A stretch of 26,333 bases of DNA from Sphaerochaetaceae bacterium (GTDB lineage Bacteria > Spirochaetota > Spirochaetia > Sphaerochaetales > Sphaerochaetaceae): positions 1-26,333 of the forward strand of contig JAKSPF010000001.1 of the NCBI GenBank assembly GCA_024405065.1, given 5' to 3'. The notes beneath the pieces are model-generated. The model ran no database searches and was not told the DNA's origin. It was given only the letters and a program-made list of their open reading frames with translations. This document shows, one piece after another, positions 5,315 through 17,516 of this stretch; position 1 is the stretch's first letter, and each line of letters starts with the position of its first letter. Position numbers and translations under genes: made by a program.

Positions 5315-7966
5315 TTATTTGATTTTGACCCATTTTGTTGGGTCAAAAATGTTGTCTTTCACGGTCCACCATTCTCCGTTTCCTACACCGAATTTTGTAG
5401 CAGATTGGTGACCGTTTACAAATATGGGTTGTGGCATTACAAATTTGTTTTTGTTATTTATTTCTTTTCCCGTAAAAGGATTAACCGCATTAAACAGTCC
5501 ATTCACAGCCAGCGTAGGACTGTCCGCATTTGTCATAAATTCATTGGAGACTGTAAACCCATGTGAATTAAAATCTTTTACAAGCATTATGGGATTAAAA
5601 CATCCACCTGCACCTTTAACAATACCATCACCCAAGTCAAATCCGTGATCAGACGTGAGAATAATCCTTGTATTATCATAAACTCCGCATTCCCTCAGAT
5701 AATCAAACCATTCACCCAAAGTAATCAGTGCTGCAAGCTGACACCTGATGTGATAGACAGTAATATAATTTGAAGTATCTAAAATACCCCCCCCCATCGC
5801 AGATACAACCGTATCTGCAGTAACAAAAGGAACCTTATCTTTCACAGTAGAAATGGGAGCAGTAACCTCTGAGATAGTTCCGCTATGAGGTGTTGTATTC
5901 TGTAGCATCAGAAAGGTGTTGTCTTGCCCATCCTCAATTTCCACAATATCCGTCAAACTCAAGAGTGTTGAATATTCATTTGCAAAGTGGGCATCAATCA
6001 CATCTGATGAAGTGGTAACATAGGAACCGGTATCGTAAAAAGGATCGTACAAAAAAAGCGGACAGCACTTCATAATCGGGAACCAAAAGTAATTGTGCAA
6101 AAAAGACCTTACATCCGATACCGAATATTTCTGTTCATACGCAAAACGAAAAACACCGTTCAGATCATAGGCTTTGACATTCTCATACCCGTCATAAATA
6201 CTTAAATCAGAAAATCGGACGTATTCCTCCGTAGGAGGATTTATCACGGTAACATCGTATCCTTCATCAGAAAAAACCGCCGGTAAGACTTTCAATGCTT
6301 CATTGTGTCTTACATGCAAAGATTCTTCCGGTCTGTTGTTTATTGCATCAGGAGTATATTCATACCCTCCGAATAAGGCGGGACTACCTGTTGTTGTCCA
6401 TCCGCCGAACGATACGGTATTAGGATAGAACGTAAAACCGTCATATAGATTTTTCAGTTGAGGATAAAGCGTCAGCTCAAACGGAAAAAGATAACCGGGA
6501 GCCCTGTCAAGCATTATAACAATTACATTTTTCCCTGTTCTGCTCATAGCAAAAAGCTTTTTTTCTGCAGATATTTTATCCGTTTTGGTCACATGAACGG
6601 TTTTGAGCCTGACACCTATGGTCACAATATTCACAAGACAGATGGAAATTACAGTTATAAGAAAAATCACAGTCAGAGATTGTGTAAACTTTCTGAATCT
6701 GAAAAATATAAGGCAAACTACAGATATCACTGCAATGTCTACAACAACATTGAAAAGCATCTGTTTTGAAGTAAAAATTACCTCTTTGTCGTAAATCAGA
6801 TTATATGACAGAATCCCGAGGTCCTTTCCGAAAAACAGGAAATTCACCAACCCCACAACAAAAAACGCAAGCATTACACAACTGAGCATTTTTTTAAATT
6901 TTCCCTGCATAAGAACATAGTAAATATTCACCCACACAAGAAACAGACCGCCGAACATACAGAGCGTAGTCATCAAAACTCTTGAAATACTCATCGGAGC
7001 AGGAGAAAATTCAGCGGGAGAGGACTTTATTACAGATGACGGTATGAGCAAACCCATCAGCAGTGTCAGCAATATACAAGAAACATAGAATATGTGTTTG
7101 TATGTACCCTGCTCATCTTCCTGAGCGTATTGCTTTTCTGTATTCAGAAAACTGCACAGCAAAGGGATACTTCCGGCAACACAGATTGCAACAAAAAACA
7201 TCATTTTCTTGAAATTTGATGCGTATCCCATTTTGATTGCAACCATCAATATCACAACTCCGGCCAGTGCACACAGGTAATATCCGAATCTCTTATATTT
7301 CTTTGATAAATTTCCGACCAGATTTTTTCCCAAGGAGAACACATTGTTCATTGTCCAGTAAAGTACAAGCCCTGACGGACTGTTATACAACAACACCAAA
7401 AATACCAGTGCCATTATGTACAGCTGCAACTTTTCTTTCAGCTTGAACCCTCTTGTGTATATTGCTCCGGACACTATGTTTACAAGTGTCATCACCACAG
7501 GAAGCACATTTATCGTAACTCCCGCAAAACTTATCAATGCATCAGGTTTTGCCAGATTACTGAAACAGAAAAAACTCACCCCTTCCAGAAGTTTCAGTTT
7601 TGACAGATAGTTATACGCTGCCATGAAAAACGGTATCTGCAATAACAAAGATATTGCTCCGCGCAATGCATATATCGGCTTATAATTCTGCTCCCTGTAG
7701 TATGCAGAAAGCACCATTACACGTTTGTCTCCATGATAACAGCGTTTTATCTGATTTACCCACTTCTCCATGGATTTCTGCTTGTTCCGTTCTTCTTCCT
7801 GTATGGCATCAGACCTTTTGTACAGTGGCAGAACCAACAATTGGACAATCAGACTTACTCCGATTATTGATATTCCCGGATTTTCGGAAAATCTGTAGAT
7901 TATCGCAAATACAAATTCTATTATAAATTCTATCGGTCCTATCAGAAGTGCATAAAAAAGGTTCAT
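5315..7966 (-). CDS. YidC/Oxa1 core fused to ~7 extra TM helices and an LtaS/alkaline-phosphatase-superfamily phosphotransferase domain (copy B, 883 aa)
   Basis: YidC motifs LLLQIPFF, NLAKPD, VLPVVM, PSGLVLYWTMNN. C-terminal NVIVIMLDR, FYPNTVSFGGWT, TTPH, IILTSDHG, TNAD. Confidence 0.85.
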   Translation of the reverse strand: MNLFYALLIGPIEFIIEFVFAIIYRFSENPGISIIGVSLIVQLLVLPLYKRSDAIQEEERNKQKSMEKWVNQIKRCYHGDKRVMVLSAYYREQNYKPIYALRGAISLLLQIPFFMAAYNYLSKLKLLEGVSFFCFSNLAKPDALISFAGVTINVLPVVMTLVNIVSGAIYTRGFKLKEKLQLYIMALVFLVLLYNSPSGLVLYWTMNNVFSLGKNLVGNLSKKYKRFGYYLCALAGVVILMVAIKMGYASNFKKMMFFVAICVAGSIPLLCSFLNTEKQYAQEDEQGTYKHIFYVSCILLTLLMGLLIPSSVIKSSPAEFSPAPMSISRVLMTTLCMFGGLFLVWVNIYYVLMQGKFKKMLSCVMLAFFVVGLVNFLFFGKDLGILSYNLIYDKEVIFTSKQMLFNVVVDIAVISVVCLIFFRFRKFTQSLTVIFLITVISICLVNIVTIGVRLKTVHVTKTDKISAEKKLFAMSRTGKNVIVIMLDRAPGYLFPFELTLYPQLKNLYDGFTFYPNTVSFGGWTTTGSPALFGGYEYTPDAINNRPEESLHVRHNEALKVLPAVFSDEGYDVTVINPPTEEYVRFSDLSIYDGYENVKAYDLNGVFRFAYEQKYSVSDVRSFLHNYFWFPIMKCCPLFLYDPFYDTGSYVTTSSDVIDAHFANEYSTLLSLTDIVEIEDGQDNTFLMLQNTTPHSGTISEVTAPISTVKDKVPFVTADTVVSAMGGGILDTSNYITVYHIRCQLAALITLGEWFDYLRECGVYDNTRIILTSDHGFDLGDGIVKGAGGCFNPIMLVKDFNSHGFTVSNEFMTNADSPTLAVNGLFNAVNPFTGKEINNKNKFVMPQPIFVNGHQSATKFGVGNGEWWTVKDNIFDPTKWVKIK
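5787..5795 (-). repeat. G9 homopolymer inside the catalytic domain of copy B, currently in frame (ATG GGG GGG GGT)
   Basis: C9 on the + strand at 5787-5795. No other G/C run of this length was noticed in the window. Confidence 0.9.
7320..7956. repeat. 637-bp direct repeat, copy 1 (identical to 10024-10660)
   Basis: Line-by-line comparison found no mismatch at offset 2704. Shadow ORFs 7416/10120 and 7654/10358 also translate identically. Confidence 0.95.
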
Positions 7967-7967
7967 A

Positions 7968-10670
7968 TCAGGGTTCTGTCCTTATAAGTTTCCAGTTTTC
8001 CGGAACAAAAATATTTTCCTTCACATTCCACCAGTTACATCCTCCGGCAGAAACAAAAAAGTTTCCCGTTCTCAACTCCGAATCGCTGTCATCAAGAATC
8101 ATCTGTATACCCGACTTTACCTGACTGTCAATAGGTCTTCCGGTAAACGGATTAACAGGATTGTCTATAGCATCGCTGAAAGCAATTGTCGGAACATCTG
8201 CATTTGTCATAAATTCGTCATCTATTTTAAAACCATGTGCATCAAAATCCTTTACCATCAGAAGAGGATTGAATCTTGTAGCTAAACTGCTGAGTTTTGA
8301 GCAATTCATTTCCCATCCGTGATCAGAAACAATGATTATTTTGGTATTATCAAAAACATCATTATCCTTCAGCCACTGACAGTATTCACCAATTGCAATA
8401 AGAGCAGCCAAATTAGTACGCAGATGCATTTTAGAACTGTAATCCGATACATCAAGGACGTAACCATCAGAAGATTCAACCACACCTGACGGAACATCTA
8501 CCATAGGAACCTCAGAGTATCTTGTGGGGATAACACCGGAAGCTTCGGCAATACCTCCGTCATGAGTTACACAACTGTACATGAGAAAAAAAGCATTGCT
8601 GCAGTCTTCCGCAACTCCGGTAATTTTTTCAAGATTCAGAAGTCCGGAATAATCATCTATAAACCCTGAATCAAGAAAATCAGAATCGGTTGATGTATAA
8701 TAACCGTCATCATATATCGGGTCATACATACATAACGGACACATTTTCATGATTGAATACCAGAAAAAATTGTGAATAAAACTCCTTTTATTTGATACGG
8801 GATATTCTTTCTCATAATCTTTAACAAACATCCTTTCAATTCTGCGGACACTGATATCAGGATATTCGTCATACATACTTAAATCGGATGTCCAGACATA
8901 ATTTGCCAAAGGAGGATCAAACACATCTACATTGTAGCCGTTTTTTGAAAAAAGCAAAGGCATAAGCAAAAGAGCCTGATTATGTTTTTCTTTTAATGAT
9001 TCATTCTCTCTGTCATTGATTGCCTCAGGCGTGTACTCGTAACCTCCAAACAGTGCCGGAGAGCCTTTGACAGTTCCTCCCGCAAAGGAAATTGTATTCG
9101 GATAATAGGTAAACCCATCCAGCAGGTCTCTCAATTGAGGATACAGATCAAGCTCAAACGGAACAGCAAAACCCAAGGCTCTATCCAGAAAAAAGACAAT
9201 AACATTCCTGCCCTTTTTACTCAGACATAGAATTTTTCCGTCTTCCGGTAATTCATCCATGCTATTAACAGTACTGTCATCCCGAAATTTTTGTGATTTT
9301 TTGTTTTTAATAAAAATCGAACCGATATTAACAAAGCTCAGAGCAATTATACTAATCAGCAGAATAATTGAAAGTTTATGCACAATGTGTTTAAACTTGA
9401 AAAACAATAACCAGCAGACAATAAACACAAAAAAATCAACAACAATGTTTATCGCAATTTCTTTGTGAGCAATTGACAATGGCTTGTCAAAAACAAGGTT
9501 ATAGGACAGAATCCCGAAGTTCTTTCCGAAAAACAGGAAATTCACTGTGCCTACAAGCAGTATTACAAAAACGAGAAATGAAAAAGAACCTTTTGATTTA
9601 TCTCCTGCAAAAATATAGTAAATATTGCTCCATATCAGAAACAACCCTGCAAACAGGCAAAACGTTGTTGCCATAATTGCCCATACGGTCATTCCTCCTG
9701 CTCCGAACTCGTCCGGAGAAGATTTGATAACAGCGGAAGGAATAACCAAGCCTATGAAAATCGTCAAAGATACAACTGAAAGATAAAAAATCTTTTTTGA
9801 AATTTTCCTTCTATCCGGCAGTATATCTATCCGGTTTGCATTTTTCTTGACAACTGATAAAAAAAGAGGAACTGAAGAAATAACGGCAACCGCAATAAAA
9901 AAAACTGTTTTTTTCAGATTTTCAGCGTAACCTTTTGTCACTCCGATAATCAGTATTGATATGCCTGTCACTAAACAGAGCCATTGTCCTGCATTTCTCC
10001 ACTTCCTTGTTACCAGTGCAAAGAGATTTTTTCCCAAGGAGAACACATTGTTCATTGTCCAGTAAAGTACAAGCCCTGACGGACTGTTATACAACAACAC
10101 CAAAAATACCAGTGCCATTATGTACAGCTGCAACTTTTCTTTCAGCTTGAACCCTCTTGTGTATATTGCTCCGGACACTATGTTTACAAGTGTCATCACC
10201 ACAGGAAGCACATTTATCGTAACTCCCGCAAAACTTATCAATGCATCAGGTTTTGCCAGATTACTGAAACAGAAAAAACTCACCCCTTCCAGAAGTTTCA
10301 GTTTTGACAGATAGTTATACGCTGCCATGAAAAACGGTATCTGCAATAACAAAGATATTGCTCCGCGCAATGCATATATCGGCTTATAATTCTGCTCCCT
10401 GTAGTATGCAGAAAGCACCATTACACGTTTGTCTCCATGATAACAGCGTTTTATCTGATTTACCCACTTCTCCATGGATTTCTGCTTGTTCCGTTCTTCT
10501 TCCTGTATGGCATCAGACCTTTTGTACAGTGGCAGAACCAACAATTGGACAATCAGACTTACTCCGATTATTGATATTCCCGGATTTTCGGAAAATCTGT
10601 AGATTATCGCAAATACAAATTCTATTATAAATTCTATCGGTCCTATCAGAAGTGCATAAAGCAAACTCAT
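7968..10670 (-). CDS. YidC/Oxa1 core fused to ~7 extra TM helices and an LtaS/alkaline-phosphatase-superfamily phosphotransferase domain (copy A, 900 aa)
   Basis: Same YidC module as copy B. C-terminal NVIVFFLDR, YYPNTISFAGGT, CVTH, IIIVSDHG, TNAD. ATGA overlap with the upstream gene and a 1-nt gap to the downstream gene. Confidence 0.85.
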   Translation of the reverse strand: MSLLYALLIGPIEFIIEFVFAIIYRFSENPGISIIGVSLIVQLLVLPLYKRSDAIQEEERNKQKSMEKWVNQIKRCYHGDKRVMVLSAYYREQNYKPIYALRGAISLLLQIPFFMAAYNYLSKLKLLEGVSFFCFSNLAKPDALISFAGVTINVLPVVMTLVNIVSGAIYTRGFKLKEKLQLYIMALVFLVLLYNSPSGLVLYWTMNNVFSLGKNLFALVTRKWRNAGQWLCLVTGISILIIGVTKGYAENLKKTVFFIAVAVISSVPLFLSVVKKNANRIDILPDRRKISKKIFYLSVVSLTIFIGLVIPSAVIKSSPDEFGAGGMTVWAIMATTFCLFAGLFLIWSNIYYIFAGDKSKGSFSFLVFVILLVGTVNFLFFGKNFGILSYNLVFDKPLSIAHKEIAINIVVDFFVFIVCWLLFFKFKHIVHKLSIILLISIIALSFVNIGSIFIKNKKSQKFRDDSTVNSMDELPEDGKILCLSKKGRNVIVFFLDRALGFAVPFELDLYPQLRDLLDGFTYYPNTISFAGGTVKGSPALFGGYEYTPEAINDRENESLKEKHNQALLLMPLLFSKNGYNVDVFDPPLANYVWTSDLSMYDEYPDISVRRIERMFVKDYEKEYPVSNKRSFIHNFFWYSIMKMCPLCMYDPIYDDGYYTSTDSDFLDSGFIDDYSGLLNLEKITGVAEDCSNAFFLMYSCVTHDGGIAEASGVIPTRYSEVPMVDVPSGVVESSDGYVLDVSDYSSKMHLRTNLAALIAIGEYCQWLKDNDVFDNTKIIIVSDHGWEMNCSKLSSLATRFNPLLMVKDFDAHGFKIDDEFMTNADVPTIAFSDAIDNPVNPFTGRPIDSQVKSGIQMILDDSDSELRTGNFFVSAGGCNWWNVKENIFVPENWKLIRTEP
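10024..10660. repeat. 637-bp direct repeat, copy 2 (identical to 7320-7956)
   Basis: Boundaries fixed by first mismatches at 7319/10023 and 7957/10661. Confidence 0.95.
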
Positions 10671-11881
10671 CCCGAAATTTCCTTCTTTTTCTTTATAAGA
10701 TAATCTACTGTCAGTTTTGCAGACTCACCGATGTACTGCCAGCAGTCAGCTTTGACAGATGCCCTGTTTGCCCGCAAAACATCACTTGCAAGAGCTTTGT
10801 CAATCACATCTTTAATACTGGAAAAATCGTCTTCTTTAAGCTCGTAACCCAACCTTTCCATTGCCTGATTACGCCATACAGGTCCGTCAATCCATGCAGC
10901 ATCATACTTTGACCTGTCAAATGTTCCGCTTGCATAAATCAGAGGTCTGTCAAACAGCAAGGTATAGTCAAAAACCACACCTGAAACATCGGAAATCATT
11001 ATGTCTGATCGGCGTAACACGTCAAAATTATCGTTGTCGTAATTCCACTCAAAATTACTGAATTCACTCTGTAGCGTTTCAAGCACTTGTGATTCGGAGT
11101 GAACAGACTGAGGATGCGGGCGTACTATGATTTTGTAACCGGTAGCAGCAAGTTCTCTGAGCAACTTTCTGCCGTATTTTGACAAAAGTCCTTCCGGTCC
11201 CCATGTAGGAGCAACCAATACAGTAGTAATGTCATTTTTTTCAACAATTTCAGCCGAAGATTTTTTCAGCATTGTATCCATATACGGAGAACCTACAACT
11301 TCAAGGTCTTTTGCTTTGATTCCTCTTTTTTGCTCAAGTTCACGTACATAAGATTTCTGAAATTCTCCGGAAAGCAGAATTGCATCAAAAAAATCTATTC
11401 CGAACATCTCGTAGTCAATCACTCCGCCCACTTCATGTAAAATGTGAACATAATATTTTGTGTTTGCCGAACGCTTCCACTGATACACATCAAGTCCGGG
11501 TGTTGTTGCCAAACAAATATCGGATTTAAGCATATTCATTCGGGCAAACGCCTTGTTCCCTTCTCCTGCAAATCTGCATTTTACATATCTGTAGTTTTCC
11601 GAAAGTGCAGGATCGTCGGATGAAGCAGTCCAATAGTCTACCTGAATTTTTCTTTTTTCAAACTCATCACATATCGGTTTAAAAACATTCCAATAACGTT
11701 TGCTGTCACTGAATATTGCATACGGTACGTAATTTACGTCTTTTGCAACTGCTTTACCTCCGTGTACCAAAAAACTGAACTTCACTTTAAGTTTCTGAAC
11801 AAAGAAAAAACCTGCGGTGACCACGCCTATCAGAACCGTGAACAACATACTCCCGGTTCCCGGATCTATATAACAGAACAT
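10667..11881 (-). CDS. CDP-glycerol glycerophosphotransferase family protein (TagF/TagB-like) with N-terminal YIDPGTGS + TM segment
   Basis: YYVHILHE, GSPYMD, LVAPTW, IIVRPHP and DIMISDVSGVVFDY..DRPLI correspond to TagF-family motifs. Confidence 0.82.
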   Translation of the reverse strand: MFCYIDPGTGSMLFTVLIGVVTAGFFFVQKLKVKFSFLVHGGKAVAKDVNYVPYAIFSDSKRYWNVFKPICDEFEKRKIQVDYWTASSDDPALSENYRYVKCRFAGEGNKAFARMNMLKSDICLATTPGLDVYQWKRSANTKYYVHILHEVGGVIDYEMFGIDFFDAILLSGEFQKSYVRELEQKRGIKAKDLEVVGSPYMDTMLKKSSAEIVEKNDITTVLVAPTWGPEGLLSKYGRKLLRELAATGYKIIVRPHPQSVHSESQVLETLQSEFSNFEWNYDNDNFDVLRRSDIMISDVSGVVFDYTLLFDRPLIYASGTFDRSKYDAAWIDGPVWRNQAMERLGYELKEDDFSSIKDVIDKALASDVLRANRASVKADCWQYIGESAKLTVDYLIKKKKEISG

Positions 11882-11910
11882 AAAGGATCAAAACCCTCCC
11901 TATAGCAAAA

Positions 11911-11939
11911 ATATTAAAGAGACGGTTACAAAATTGCAA
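11911..11939 (-). promoter_or_regulatory. Putative sigma70 promoter TTGCAA-N17-TAATAT for the three-gene operon
   Basis: -35 at 11939-11934, -10 at 11916-11911, followed by SD-like GGGAGG (11900-11895). Confidence 0.5.
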
Positions 11940-11960
11940 TCAACTCTGAAACTTACTTGC

Positions 11961-12617
11961 CTACTTGCGGAAACTTTCGCGCCAAACCTTTGCAGGACTT
12001 ATTCTGAACCGAACCAGACAGTAAATCCATGCTATTGCAATACTGGAAAGATGTACAAGATGGGATATTCCTGCGCTCGTTCCGAATACCTGAGAAAGAA
12101 CCTCAATCAACATGAAAATCATGACAGCTAAAGGCATTTTCATGGGAATAAAAAAGAACAAAAGTATTCTGCTGTCAGGGAAAAGAACCGATATCAGAAA
12201 AAGCAACCCGTATATCGGCCCTGAAGCTCCGAGTATCATCACATTGGACATTCCGCCTACAGTATTCACCGCAGAGCTTAGAATTCCGCCGAGAACTCCG
12301 GTAACAAGATAAAAAAGAAGAAACTCACGACTTCCCAGAAAACGTTCGCAGGACATCCCGAACATCAGCAGGGCATACATGTTGAACAGAAGGTGTGTAA
12401 AATCAACATGAACAAACATATAACTCACAAACTGCCACACAAAACCGTGTTTCACCATCTGCGGCACAAGTCCGAGCCAATAAATAAGAGGCACGCCTTT
12501 TACCGAAAATTTGAAATGCCCGACGGCAAAATAAACAAGTACATTGAGCATTACAAGGTACAGGCAAACCGAACAGTATGTATAGGTGAATTTTTTGTTG
12601 AAAATATTGTTGTTCAT
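11961..12617 (-). CDS. Rhomboid-family intramembrane serine protease (start re-assigned to ATG 12617)
   Basis: WQFVSYMFVH, HLLFNM, catalytic GASG, and SHLVHL histidine motif. Six to seven TM segments. Confidence 0.9.
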   Translation of the reverse strand: MNNNIFNKKFTYTYCSVCLYLVMLNVLVYFAVGHFKFSVKGVPLIYWLGLVPQMVKHGFVWQFVSYMFVHVDFTHLLFNMYALLMFGMSCERFLGSREFLLFYLVTGVLGGILSSAVNTVGGMSNVMILGASGPIYGLLFLISVLFPDSRILLFFFIPMKMPLAVMIFMLIEVLSQVFGTSAGISHLVHLSSIAIAWIYCLVRFRISPAKVWRESFRK

Positions 12618-12624
12618 AGGATAA

Positions 12625-12653
12625 AACATAAACGTTAGCAGGATTCTGGTCAA
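12625..12653 (-). promoter_or_regulatory. Putative promoter TTGACC-N17-TATGTT, 7 nt before ATG 12617 (leaderless architecture)
   Basis: Read directly on the minus strand. No SD before the ATG. Confidence 0.6.
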
Positions 12654-15272: not shown

Positions 15273-17516
15273 TCAATGAATTTCAAGGTACAGTGAAAAT
15301 CTGAGTCTTTGATTGATTCCGGCTCCTATGACAATCTCACCGAACCTTGAACCGAGACGATAACCGGCGAACAGACCTACATCCCATAACCCGCCCTTGC
15401 ACCCTGAAAACGGAGCCACATTTGAATCTGTCCGCTCACCCAATTCATCATGCATCAACTCATAGGGCATCAGAAATGCCGTATGCTCGTCATTTGACCT
15501 GAAGCCTGCTTTCAGCTGAAACAGCAGGTGCGGTTCAATAAGCCCGTCTGCAAGCTTATAGTCATAGGAAACACCGCCCATTATACAGTCTCTTACAAAA
15601 AAACCGCATGAATATCCGGGCACCCCGTAACTTCCTCCGTAATCCGTATATGATTCAGTAAGTATCCGCGGCTCACGGCTTGTCTGAGCAAAAAGTTCAA
15701 CTCCGAGAAGAGATTTATCACTTAACTGGAAAAAGTCTTCAAACGCACCTATCAGTTTATAGGTCCAGAAGTTGTATTTTTTATCCTTAAACACCGTTCT
15801 TCCCACTCTGCCGCCCAGATCGGCACGTAATCCGTTCACCCCGTTTTGTTCGGCAATGTAATCACCGATACGGATAAAAGCAAGTTCCAACTTCGGGAAA
15901 AACAACGTGTAGCGTCCGTTTTCAGAATTGAACAACTCCGGAAATACTCCGGGATCCCACGCTTTGTCATTTTTAAGAAAAAACACGTCCGCTTTGACTG
16001 CAAAATTTGAATTGATGTCTTTTTCATCTGTAACTTTGATTCCTGCGCTTCCTCTGATGCCGAACTCTGTTCCTCTTACCGCCGTTCCATGAACAATAGA
16101 AAAGTCATCAAAATCTCCGGAAGATTTTACAATATCTTCATTCAGGTTAAGCCTGTTGGTACGTATACTTATGCTCCCTGCATCAAGAACGAACGTATGT
16201 CTGAAATACAGATTAATGTCATCTCCCTCCGAATCGTCATCAAGAAGAACAAATCCCTCATATTCCGCTTTCATACCGTTTCCGATTTTTACAGCCGTAG
16301 ACATACTGTAATTAGACCCCTGTATCTCATGAAGAAAAACCTTTACGGCAAATGTGGGAATCACATTCAGAACCGGTGATTTACTGCGTCCTTCCTTAAA
16401 ATCAAAGCTGAGAGAACCCGTTCCGAACAAACCGATTGAAACACGTGAATCGTGAAGGGCCCTTGATTTTCTGTATTCTGTTGAAGCCTGTGCCTTTGAT
16501 ACCGCCCTTTCCTCCCATTTGGTAAAATACTCACCCTGACGGTTCGGATCTTTGTGCTCCCTTTTGTCCTCAGGAATACTTTCCGCAATTTCCAGAAGAG
16601 CATCATAGCATTGCCTGACCGCTTCTTCACCGCGCTTTATTGACTCCTCCGCCTTTCCGAAATCCAAAGTGCCGATTCCCGTAAGATCCGGTTCAAGCAC
16701 AATATCGGCATACTGAATCTGCTCCTTTACAGGTCCGGAAACTATAAGGGAAAACACTCCTCCGGCCGTACCGGAAAGAGACTCGTATGTTTCACGGGTA
16801 TTTCCCAACTTGGCATTCACATTTTCACAGATAACAATATCAAATCCGTATTCTCTTGCCAATTTTGCCGGCATATTGTCTTTGAGACCACCGTCAAACA
16901 CCAGAGTTCCGTCAGCAAGCTCATACGGTTTGAAAGCAAGAGGAATGCTCATTGAACCTCTCATTGCATCAATAATTGAACCGTCCTTGAAGACAATCTT
17001 TTCACCGGTAACCGCATTTACCCCTATGCATCTGAACGGCACAACAAGATTGTCAAACCTTATCCATTTGGGAACATTTCCTACGGTCTCATTAAAAAAA
17101 TTCATTATCTTGTAATCATCAATGAGACCGTTTATTTTTCCCACGCCTTTTCCGATTTCAAGGTTCAGAATATTGTATGTGTCATAGGAAAACGGCTCGG
17201 TCATTTCTACATAACCGGAGCTTTCAAATGTTGTGAAAAGATTTTTAAGGTCATTGTTCTCAACAACCCTTCTTATATCTCCCGGACTGTAACCCGCACA
17301 GTAAAGTCCCCCTATGAGTGCACCCATGCTGGTTCCCAGTACCATATCAATCGGTATACCGAGCCTTTCCAGCTCTTCAAGAACAGCAATATGGGCAATG
17401 CCCTTTGCTCCACCGCCTGAAAGAACAACCGCCACAGAGGGTCTTCCGTTTAATGTAGAAAATACAGATGTCACCGCAACACAGAAAACCAAAAACAGGA
17501 CAATACACCTTTTCAT
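15273..17516 (-). CDS. Patatin-like phospholipase with signal peptide and predicted C-terminal outer-membrane beta-barrel
   Basis: GGGAKG, GTSMG (nucleophile Ser), DGG. N-terminal signal MKRCIVLFLVFCVAVTSVFS. Alternating amphipathic strands at the C-terminus ending RFSLYLEIH. Confidence 0.85.
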   Translation of the reverse strand: MKRCIVLFLVFCVAVTSVFSTLNGRPSVAVVLSGGGAKGIAHIAVLEELERLGIPIDMVLGTSMGALIGGLYCAGYSPGDIRRVVENNDLKNLFTTFESSGYVEMTEPFSYDTYNILNLEIGKGVGKINGLIDDYKIMNFFNETVGNVPKWIRFDNLVVPFRCIGVNAVTGEKIVFKDGSIIDAMRGSMSIPLAFKPYELADGTLVFDGGLKDNMPAKLAREYGFDIVICENVNAKLGNTRETYESLSGTAGGVFSLIVSGPVKEQIQYADIVLEPDLTGIGTLDFGKAEESIKRGEEAVRQCYDALLEIAESIPEDKREHKDPNRQGEYFTKWEERAVSKAQASTEYRKSRALHDSRVSIGLFGTGSLSFDFKEGRSKSPVLNVIPTFAVKVFLHEIQGSNYSMSTAVKIGNGMKAEYEGFVLLDDDSEGDDINLYFRHTFVLDAGSISIRTNRLNLNEDIVKSSGDFDDFSIVHGTAVRGTEFGIRGSAGIKVTDEKDINSNFAVKADVFFLKNDKAWDPGVFPELFNSENGRYTLFFPKLELAFIRIGDYIAEQNGVNGLRADLGGRVGRTVFKDKKYNFWTYKLIGAFEDFFQLSDKSLLGVELFAQTSREPRILTESYTDYGGSYGVPGYSCGFFVRDCIMGGVSYDYKLADGLIEPHLLFQLKAGFRSNDEHTAFLMPYELMHDELGERTDSNVAPFSGCKGGLWDVGLFAGYRLGSRFGEIVIGAGINQRLRFSLYLEIH

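Follow-up and report, generated by a model that had tools for sequence, protein, structure and literature searches.

The stretch of DNA analysed in this work (the window) comprises 26,333 nucleotides of a Sphaerochaetaceae bacterium (contig JAKSPF010000001.1 of assembly GCA_024405065.1, positions 1 to 26,333) and carries on its minus strand three adjacent genes coding for a TagF-like protein (P0001) and two large fusion proteins, hereafter fusion A (P0002) and fusion B (P0003). In each fusion a YidC-fold module is followed by a domain of seven transmembrane (TM) helices and by a domain of the alkaline-phosphatase superfamily. We regard the module formed by the three genes as a large, uncharacterised variant of the head-group transfer systems already known, distinguished by a YidC-fold fusion without precedent; its mechanism is hypothetical. 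The open reading frames (ORFs) confirmed the close spacing from which translational coupling of the genes had been claimed: those of P0001 and P0002 share an ATGA overlap at 10667-10670, those of P0002 and P0003 are separated by a 1-nt gap at 7967, and a GGAGG ribosome-binding site lies about 11 nt 5' of the P0001 ATG. The features of the locus are listed below.

10667-11881, minus strand: TagF-like protein P0001, 404 aa (ORF list)
11840-11872, minus strand: N-terminal motif YIDPGTGSMLF, where the membrane anchor of the TagF-like protein starts, more than 90% conserved in 50 homologues from 80 loci
7968-10670, minus strand: fusion A (P0002), 900 aa, with YidC module, 7-TM domain and alkaline-phosphatase-superfamily domain
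10011-10670, minus strand: YidC-fold module of fusion A, residues 1-220, near-identical to the copy in fusion B
7971-9239, minus strand: alkaline-phosphatase-superfamily domain of fusion A, residues 478-900, 46% identical to the fusion B domain and with the same invariant residues
5315-7966, minus strand: fusion B (P0003), 883 aa, built like fusion A
7307-7966, minus strand: YidC-fold module of fusion B, residues 1-220 (Foldseek match to 3wo6)
6566-7297, minus strand: residues 224-467 of fusion B, a membrane domain of seven helices (taken from the AF2 model) with the conserved motif SSPxEF in an outer loop
5318-6565, minus strand: alkaline-phosphatase-superfamily domain of fusion B, residues 468-883 (Foldseek)
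6395-6397, minus strand: codon of Thr524, candidate catalytic nucleophile of fusion B, invariant in alignments of 48 and 32 homologues
5787-5795, minus strand: in-frame G9 homopolymer in the catalytic domain of fusion B (read from the sequence)

The YidC-containing fusion proteins

The N-terminal module of both fusions was recognised by PF02096, with 83.5 bits for fusion A and 85.4 bits for fusion B (cut-off 35) over residues 31-217 in both cases, and by TIGR03592, with 89.9 and 90.6 bits respectively (cut-off 84.3). A signal peptide, a lipobox and a P1 domain are absent from both proteins. Fusion B was modelled with AlphaFold2 (AF2) from 48 homologues, yielding a mean pLDDT of 83.2, and a model of residues 1-468 reached 83.4. 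When compared with known structures by Foldseek, the N-terminal 220 residues of the model were superimposed on YidC2 of B. halodurans (3wo6) with a TM-score of 0.71 and a root-mean-square deviation of 3.3 Å over 216 columns; E. coli YidC was matched as well, and the identity to the matched YidC structures was 20-25%. These data confirmed that each fusion begins with a five-TM core of the YidC/Oxa1 type devoid of signal peptide and P1 domain. As in YidC, SpoIIIJ and Oxa1, the five-helix core carries a cytoplasmic helical hairpin between TM1 and TM2.

The module differs from these insertases in being joined to an enzyme, in lacking the N-terminal elements mentioned above, in being encoded outside the yidC-jag context and in the composition of its groove. 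Canonical YidC has Arg or Lys at the groove position of TM1. Both fusions have Gln42 there, and the 47 fusion homologues that were aligned all have Gln, Asn or Ser. Many polar residues in TM3 and TM5 of the module (T160, N163, S166, Y170, N207 and S211) are invariant. The genome also encodes a canonical YidC of 603 aa at the position given below. This protein has a helix at its N-terminus, a PF14849 (P1) domain and the groove Lys, and scores 195 bits in its yidC-jag context.

Contig C146 of the genome (L014:3864-6532), minus strand: canonical yidC followed by jag/KhpB

Since this separate YidC shows the P1 domain, the groove Lys and the jag neighbour, the fusions are not the housekeeping insertase of the organism; the presence of a canonical yidC elsewhere in the genome had been named as a point to verify in the original prediction. 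An Omp85 match, together with the P1 domain of YidC, supported the view of a diderm host. An rve-type integrase gene occurs just upstream of the canonical yidC-jag pair (L014:7255-8472).

Downstream of the YidC core, the AF2 model of fusion B showed seven helices (residues 224-245, 252-274, 286-315, 327-352, 355-379, 400-423 and 425-467) followed by an alpha/beta domain of about 415 aa, in agreement with the succession of about seven TM segments and an alkaline-phosphatase-superfamily domain proposed from the sequence. The seven-helix domain has no fold relative in the Protein Data Bank (PDB), as all the non-YidC matches returned by Foldseek for residues 1-468 had E values above 0.1, and it is the least conserved part between the paralogues. 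The C-terminal domain of fusion B scored 31.3 bits against PF00884, above the cut-off of 25, and that of fusion A 20.4 bits, below it. Fold comparison of the catalytic domain returned near-equal matches to phosphonate monoester hydrolase (PMH), LtaS/LtaP, MCR-1, EptA, PbgA/YejM and many sulfatases (Foldseek E about 1e-7, target TM-score 0.35-0.55). Sequence and profile searches of the PDB with the C-terminal domain gave alignments to PMH and sulfatases that were confined to the Asp-His region and the first Asp of the metal site, and neither the protein nor the domain profile gave an alignment to LtaS or EptA in these searches. The label "LtaS-like" originally attached to the domain was thus too specific, its distance from PMH, sulfatases, LtaS, MCR-1/EptA and PbgA being about equal.

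Residue D487 corresponds in the alignment to the Asp that binds the metal in PMH 2w8s, and D487, T524, H694, D773 and H774 are invariant in alignments of 48 and 32 homologues from several phyla. The consensus of the nucleophile region is T-N-x-G-x-P-A-L-F-G-G. Since the C/S-x-P-x-R motif of sulfatases is absent from the domain, this can be considered a candidate phosphotransferase of the Thr type rather than a sulfatase. As to its location, hydropathy and K/R counts, read together with the topology of YidC, favour the earlier suggestion of an extracytoplasmic domain: the catalytic part is predicted to lie outside because the YidC core ends in the cytoplasm and is followed by seven further helices, and the K/R-rich loops are mostly compatible with this arrangement. 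The in-frame G9 run of fusion B does not occur in fusion A and might act as a slipped-strand switch.

Among the entries of a protein Atlas, clusters of "hypothetical proteins" of 555-719 aa from Bacillota, Spirochaetota and Pseudomonadota resemble the 7-TM and catalytic parts without the YidC module, these being leads without an alignment; BcsG and EptA-like clusters appeared more distant.

Fusions A and B are 57% identical overall, with a very uneven distribution of the differences. Their first 216 residues are identical except for residues 2 and 4, and the corresponding DNA is 100% identical over 637 bp (10024-10660 and 7320-7956), while the rest of the two genes shows about 45% protein identity. 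The same trend was observed in all 13 genomes with at least two full-length fusions, where the YidC module was always the most similar part: its identity was 43-98.6%, while the 7-TM part reached 26-58% and the catalytic part 38-68%. The modules of locus L050 reached 98.6%, and a weaker homogenisation was detected in 11 other genomes. An assembly artefact as the main explanation of the 637-bp identity was rejected on the basis of this comparison of genomes. Since the pattern recurs in 13 genomes, the near-identity of the YidC modules is probably not an oddity of the assembly and would represent a recurring biological pattern, due to gene conversion or strong constraint.

In a FastTree phylogeny of 103 fusions, A and B were the nearest relatives of each other. 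At least two fusions are present in 16 of 80 loci sampled for neighbourhood analysis. Locus L084 contains six fusion genes in tandem, arranged head to tail (L084:282-15693) with pairwise YidC-module identities of 61-86%, and no TagF-like gene was found in this 18.5-kb locus.

The TagF-like partner and the spread of the pair

P0001 matched PF04464 with 49.6 bits (E 3.6e-13, cut-off 22.1) through residues 183-327, corresponding to profile positions 150-300 of 367, while its score against the TarF equivalog NF041712 was 15.9 bits, below the cut-off of 550. A search of the PDB sequences with P0001 gave nothing useful. Hydropathy and K/R counts revealed a single hydrophobic TM helix at residues 8-31 followed by a K-rich stretch, and the protein is predicted to consist of an N-out single TM anchor and a cytoplasmic GT-B-like catalytic domain. 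Two motifs of the TagF-like family, RPHPQS, which may correspond to the TagF catalytic His motif, and ISD.SGV.FD, are more than 90% conserved in the 50 homologues examined.

P0001 resembles TagF, TagB and TarF in scoring above the PF04464 threshold and in possessing the HP-containing and SD.SG..FD motifs. It departs from them in that only the C-terminal half of the profile is matched, in that the membrane attachment is an integral N-out anchor bearing a conserved motif instead of the peripheral binding of TagF-type enzymes, and in that the context of its family points to choline or 2-aminoethylphosphonate (AEP) donors, not to CDP-glycerol. We propose that the YIDPGTGSMLF motif at the start of the anchor is a docking or targeting element. 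All the fusions of one genome would have to fit a single TagF-like partner through their YidC module, and this requirement could account for both the homogeneity of the modules and the conserved N-terminus of the TagF-like protein. The two paralogues share the TagF-like partner, have near-identical YidC modules and differ in the 7-TM and catalytic parts, which suggests two acceptor or donor specificities.

The fusion belongs to a widespread family. A word-indexed search returned more than 3200 homologues, and an exhaustive search of 50% representatives yielded 1366 clusters at 50% identity with E <= 1e-30; at least 566 loci were located in species-representative genomes. Most of them belong to gut and rumen Clostridia (Oscillospiraceae, Lachnospiraceae, Ruminococcaceae and Acutalibacteraceae), with a Treponema and an Atopobiaceae among the others. 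The carriers include the cultured strains Acetatifactor aquisgranensis DSM 110981 (L049), Hydrogeniiclostridium mannosilyticum ASD2818 (L046), Lachnospiraceae bacterium XBD2001 (L034) and Bacterium 1XD8-76 (L051). As had been anticipated, the database names of the homologues, where present, are all "membrane protein insertase YidC" and nothing else, and for this reason the annotation hides the enzyme of a very large family without any characterised member. Among 40 relatives of the window genome, the fusion occurs in six, the best being 38% identical, while the identity to Clostridia is 41-43%. As the relatives are less similar than the Clostridia, the distribution fits a patchy module that may have spread horizontally.

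The linkage between the two genes was evaluated in the 80 sampled loci and in six further loci fetched earlier by exact-protein look-up. A TagF-like gene lies within 300 nt of the fusion on the same strand in 59 of the 80 loci, and anywhere in the locus in 66. A TagF-like homologue adjoins the fusion in all six look-up loci, the one without a Pfam call being 46% identical to P0001. As for the 40 relatives, both genes were found in five (adjacent in four), the fusion alone in one, a weak TagF-like match alone in one and neither in 33, so that the TagF-like gene accompanies the fusion in five of the six fusion-bearing relatives. The co-occurrence to be checked according to the original prediction was thus verified, and the three findings that would have spoken against the prediction turned out the other way: the N-terminal module models as an Oxa1 fold, the linkage to a TagF-like gene is conserved and the fusion is not the sole YidC of the genome.

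Head-group genes and the proposed relay

Clustering of the ORFs of the 80 loci revealed, besides chance neighbours, three widely shared families: the fusion, the TagF-like protein, and LicC-like NTP transferases with choline kinases. Of the 80 loci, 27 contain a LicC-like NTP transferase, 16 a choline kinase (PF01633) and 9 a transporter of the EamA (LicB-like) type. The gene order licC-licA-licB-TagF-fusion was found in six loci (L018, L019, L021, L026, L041 and L045) and TagF-fusion-licC-licA-licB in three (L020, L046 and L062). A common second layout is shared by L028, L049, L051 and L080, the last three assigned by position; where it was scanned, it comprised a fusion of winged helix-turn-helix (wHTH), NTP transferase and kinase together with a second NTP transferase in L049, and a BCCT transporter in L028. 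Phosphoenolpyruvate (PEP)-mutase/AEP genes are neighbours of the pair in L004 and L010 and occur in 4 of the 80 loci, and an NTP transferase fused to a CobD-like decarboxylase (phospho-amino-acid type) occurs in L008 and L034. An assignment of the neighbouring NTP transferase to GalU/GtaB was rejected on the basis of NCBIfam scores far below the cut-offs, its N-terminal wHTH and its co-occurrence with choline kinase.

No LicD was detected in the lic-bearing loci. When five genomes with lic genes beside the pair (four metagenome-assembled genomes, MAGs, and one isolate) were searched as a whole, LicD was not found in four of them and was found in the isolate. Two routes to phosphocholine (ChoP) decoration are known, one employing LicD with CDP-choline and the other PptA with a lipid ChoP donor (PMC10434233). 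According to a preprint (10.1101/2024.06.12.598703), the ChoP carried by an exopolysaccharide of C. immunis depends on licABC and is responsible for a metabolic phenotype of the host; the preprint mentions neither licD nor another transferase for this step, and licABC alone suffices for ChoP in C. symbiosum.

In a maximum-likelihood phylogeny, 64 TagF-like proteins fall into two clades separated with 100/99 support. Of the nine rows of clade A, one is the window protein, three are linked to AEP genes, two to the decarboxylase and three have no link; none is linked to choline kinase, while all 14 choline-kinase-linked rows fall in clade B. The FastTree phylogeny of the 103 fusions mirrors this division.

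In the window genome, which is 88.9% complete, TagD (TIGR01518), choline kinase (PF01633) and LicD (PF04991) were not found, and the Lic-1 pathway is represented by two LicC-like NTP transferases, each 57% identical to the NTP transferase beside the TagF-like gene of L004. One copy heads a same-strand run with an ABC importer, whose three parts best match the PhnS2, PhnT2 and PhnU2 "putative 2-aminoethylphosphonate" models, all below the cut-offs.

Contig C117 (L012:2916-11596), minus strand: head-group supply candidate run

The run encodes, in order, a GINT1_N-like protein, the LicC-like NTP transferase with an N-terminal extension, the PhnS2/PhnT2/PhnU2-like importer and two proteins of about 560 aa that matched no family, and it is likely the head-group supply route. 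Since the TagF-like protein belongs to clade A and a LicC-like gene stands beside this importer, the head group in the window genome is more probably AEP-like or a related amino-alcohol phosphate. In most Clostridia it is probably phosphocholine, with the pair standing in for LicD.

On these grounds we propose that the three proteins constitute a self-contained envelope-decoration module working across the cytoplasmic membrane, namely a LicD-independent relay of CDP/CMP-activated head groups, a reading on which we consider the evidence evenly balanced. The TagF-like enzyme, assigned to its family by profile and motifs, would place a small head group, presumably CDP- or CMP-activated, on a membrane-bound acceptor at the inner leaflet; TagF-like capsule transition transferases act on lipid-linked acceptors at this side of the membrane (PMC11666461). 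The loaded lipid-linked intermediate would then reach the outer leaflet at the fusion protein, where the outer domain, given its fold and invariant residues, might hand the phospho(no) head group over to an acceptor in the periplasm or at the surface through a covalent Thr intermediate at the Asp/Asp-His metal site. This last transfer is modelled on the use of phospholipid donors by EptA, PptA, LtaS and GacH. The YidC module would either dock the TagF-like partner or conduct the head group.

With respect to this module, we lean tentatively towards a docking site for the TagF-like anchor helix; a conduit for the lipid-linked head group comes second, and a plain cis-insertase role appears the least probable of the three. 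In its most complete form, the hypothesis states that the YidC fold has been permanently recruited into an enzyme and that its charge-free groove holds the YIDPGTGS anchor helix and/or passes the head group of a dedicated lipid-linked donor, resulting in a single trans-membrane relay of phosphocholine or AEP to surface glycans. We regard this form as doubtful. Should it be true, the LicD-independent ChoP/AEP transferase so far missing from gut Clostridia and from some spirochaete-like diderms would have been found in the pair, and the fusion would be the first member of the YidC superfamily with a primary function other than insertion.

Several points weigh against the relay. The mirrored trees could come from co-inheritance alone because the genes adjoin. 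Head-group activation genes occur within 8 kb in only about a third of the loci, and two clade-B loci contain AEP genes, so the clades do not map cleanly to the head group. The whole-genome LicD searches in lic-bearing carriers covered five genomes, four of them MAGs of unreported completeness, and at 88.9% completeness the absence of TagD, LicA and LicD from the window genome is not proven. No head-group activation gene adjoins the pair in the window, and the link to the C117 run is drawn by homology, through the 57% identity to the L004 neighbour and the below-cut-off NCBIfam matches. Thr524 is a candidate nucleophile assigned by invariance and by its position, 37 residues past the metal-binding Asp, and not by superposition. 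Finally, neither family has a biochemically characterised member, so that donor, lipid intermediate and acceptor are all putative.

The alternative that survives best considers the YidC module a private cis-insertase or chaperone, with the catalytic domain using phosphatidylethanolamine or phosphatidylglycerol independently and the TagF-like enzyme separately modifying the same polymer in the cytoplasm. The YidC core is indeed intact and strongly conserved, stand-alone relatives of the 7-TM and catalytic parts seem to exist among the Atlas leads, and all the membrane transferases of the alkaline-phosphatase superfamily that, to our knowledge, have been characterised use bulk phospholipids. However, the family-wide loss of the positive charge in the groove speaks against an ordinary insertase function, enzymes such as LtaS and EptA are not known to need a YidC of their own, the genome already possesses a canonical one, and both the pairing with the TagF-like gene and the conserved anchor motif would be left unexplained. 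We therefore judge this arrangement unlikely.

Teichoic-acid-type chemistry, which the original prediction had favoured, is less probable still. According to this explanation, the TagF-like enzyme would use CDP-glycerol or CDP-ribitol and the fusions would be LtaS-type synthases or primases building or decorating a teichoic-acid-like polyol-phosphate polymer or glycolipid. PF04464 is in fact the CDP-glycerol glycerophosphotransferase family, LtaS and LtaP are among the best fold matches, and the two paralogues recall the LtaP/LtaS pair of Listeria. On the other hand, the glycerol-3-phosphate cytidylyltransferase was not found in the genome, and no CDP-glycerol or CDP-ribitol gene emerged among the recurrent clusters of the 80 loci; this screen by Pfam or homology covered the top five clusters by recurrence and a small number of rarer ones, and did not extend to the other clusters or to the six loci fetched earlier. 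The recurrent partners are instead choline and AEP activation genes, the TarF equivalog score is far from its cut-off, LtaS is no closer to the catalytic domain than PMH, sulfatases and MCR-1, and LtaS itself does not need CDP-glycerol. With TagD not found and neighbours of this kind, the genomic context does not back the CDP-polyol chemistry, which is probably wrong.

A non-catalytic role of the fusions as sensors or scaffolds similar to PbgA/YejM, with a domain that binds a lipid or a glycan without transferring it, appears very improbable: PbgA/YejM structures are among the fold matches, but PbgA is not known to possess a complete active site, while the metal ligands and the Thr are invariant in 48 fusion homologues from several phyla. 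Hardly credible is the view of the fusions as extra YidC insertase paralogues with an accessory domain for general membrane-protein biogenesis, which agrees with their NCBI name and the PF02096 score above threshold but not with the patchy occurrence (6 of 40 relatives), the separate yidC-jag with P1, the charge lost from the groove, the fusion to a conserved enzyme domain and the pairing with a TagF-like gene.

Related systems and the surroundings of the locus

The relay proposed here shares features with several known systems. Like EptA, MCR-1 and Neisseria PptA, the fusions combine a polytopic N-terminal membrane domain with an alkaline-phosphatase-fold domain, predicted to be extracytoplasmic, full-length MCR-1 (9nww) and EptA (5fgn) being fold matches to fusion B, and the candidate Thr nucleophile lies about 37-40 residues past the first metal ligand. 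PptA also uses a lipid donor for ChoP and is phase-variable via a poly-G tract (PMC10434233), and fusion B contains the G9 run. Unlike these enzymes, the fusions show no match to EptA_B_N (PF08019), have seven helices devoid of a PDB match instead of five and an additional N-terminal YidC module, and are paired with a cytoplasmic TagF-like enzyme; sequence similarity is limited to the Asp-His region.

LtaS/LtaP and GacH possess an extracellular domain of the alkaline-phosphatase fold with a Thr and a metal site, to which the predicted outer domain of the fusions, with its candidate Thr nucleophile, would correspond. Paralogue pairs occur here too, and the LtaS/LtaP structures 4uor, 2w5r and 4uop matched the fusion at E about 1e-7. 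In contrast, LtaS has five N-terminal TM helices of a different membrane domain against the twelve of the fusions (five of YidC and seven more), no sequence-level match to LtaS/LtaP was obtained by phmmer or by profile, and the fold is not closer to them than to sulfatases or PMH. LtaS and GacH moreover take glycerol-phosphate from phosphatidylglycerol and require neither a CDP-activated donor nor a TagF-like partner.

LicD, the presumed consumer of CDP-choline, occupies the same operon place beside licA/licB/licC-type genes, but it has an unrelated fold and is wholly cytoplasmic. The GtrA/B/C, ArnC/EF/T and CsbB/GtcA/YfhO systems may offer an analogy of logic only, in that loading in the cytoplasm, passage through the bilayer and transfer at the outer face follow one another; they belong to unrelated families and transfer sugars, not phospho head groups. 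A literature search returned no paper on an enzyme fused to YidC or on a phosphocholine transferase of the TagF-like type.

The pair sits at the LicD place in lic operons of gut and rumen Clostridia, which makes it a candidate for the ChoP transferase of C. immunis and for AEP tailoring of surfaces. YidC-type insertases have been reported to scramble lipids (10.1101/2023.09.01.555937), and the fusion can be viewed as a natural experiment on functions of the YidC groove beyond protein insertion. Paralogue arrays of up to six genes in tandem, homogenised YidC modules and the G9 tract suggest a variable surface decoration in host-associated bacteria.

The region upstream of P0001 was also inspected. 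The original prediction had assigned the three genes a putative promoter of their own, a claim that was not borne out by a consensus scan, which detected no sigma-70-like site in the 79-nt gap at 11882-11960; TTGATT and TAATAT are present in this gap with a spacing of 21 nt. The next gene is the following.

11961-12653, minus strand: rhomboid gene (PF01694), 79 nt upstream of P0001

Since the rhomboid gene is directly upstream on the same strand, its co-transcription with the three genes is possible. Intramembrane proteases recur beside the pair, the rhomboid being found in the window and Rce1-like CPBP proteases (PF02517) either separating the TagF-like gene from the fusion gene or adjoining them in four further loci (L016:7250-8008, L018:7369-7980, L026:6050-6742 and L070:3278-3967), and these enzymes might process the fusions. 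Further along the window, positions 15273-17516 (minus strand) encode a protein of 747 aa with an N-terminal patatin domain and a long C-terminal part that has no Pfam match and looks like a beta-barrel.

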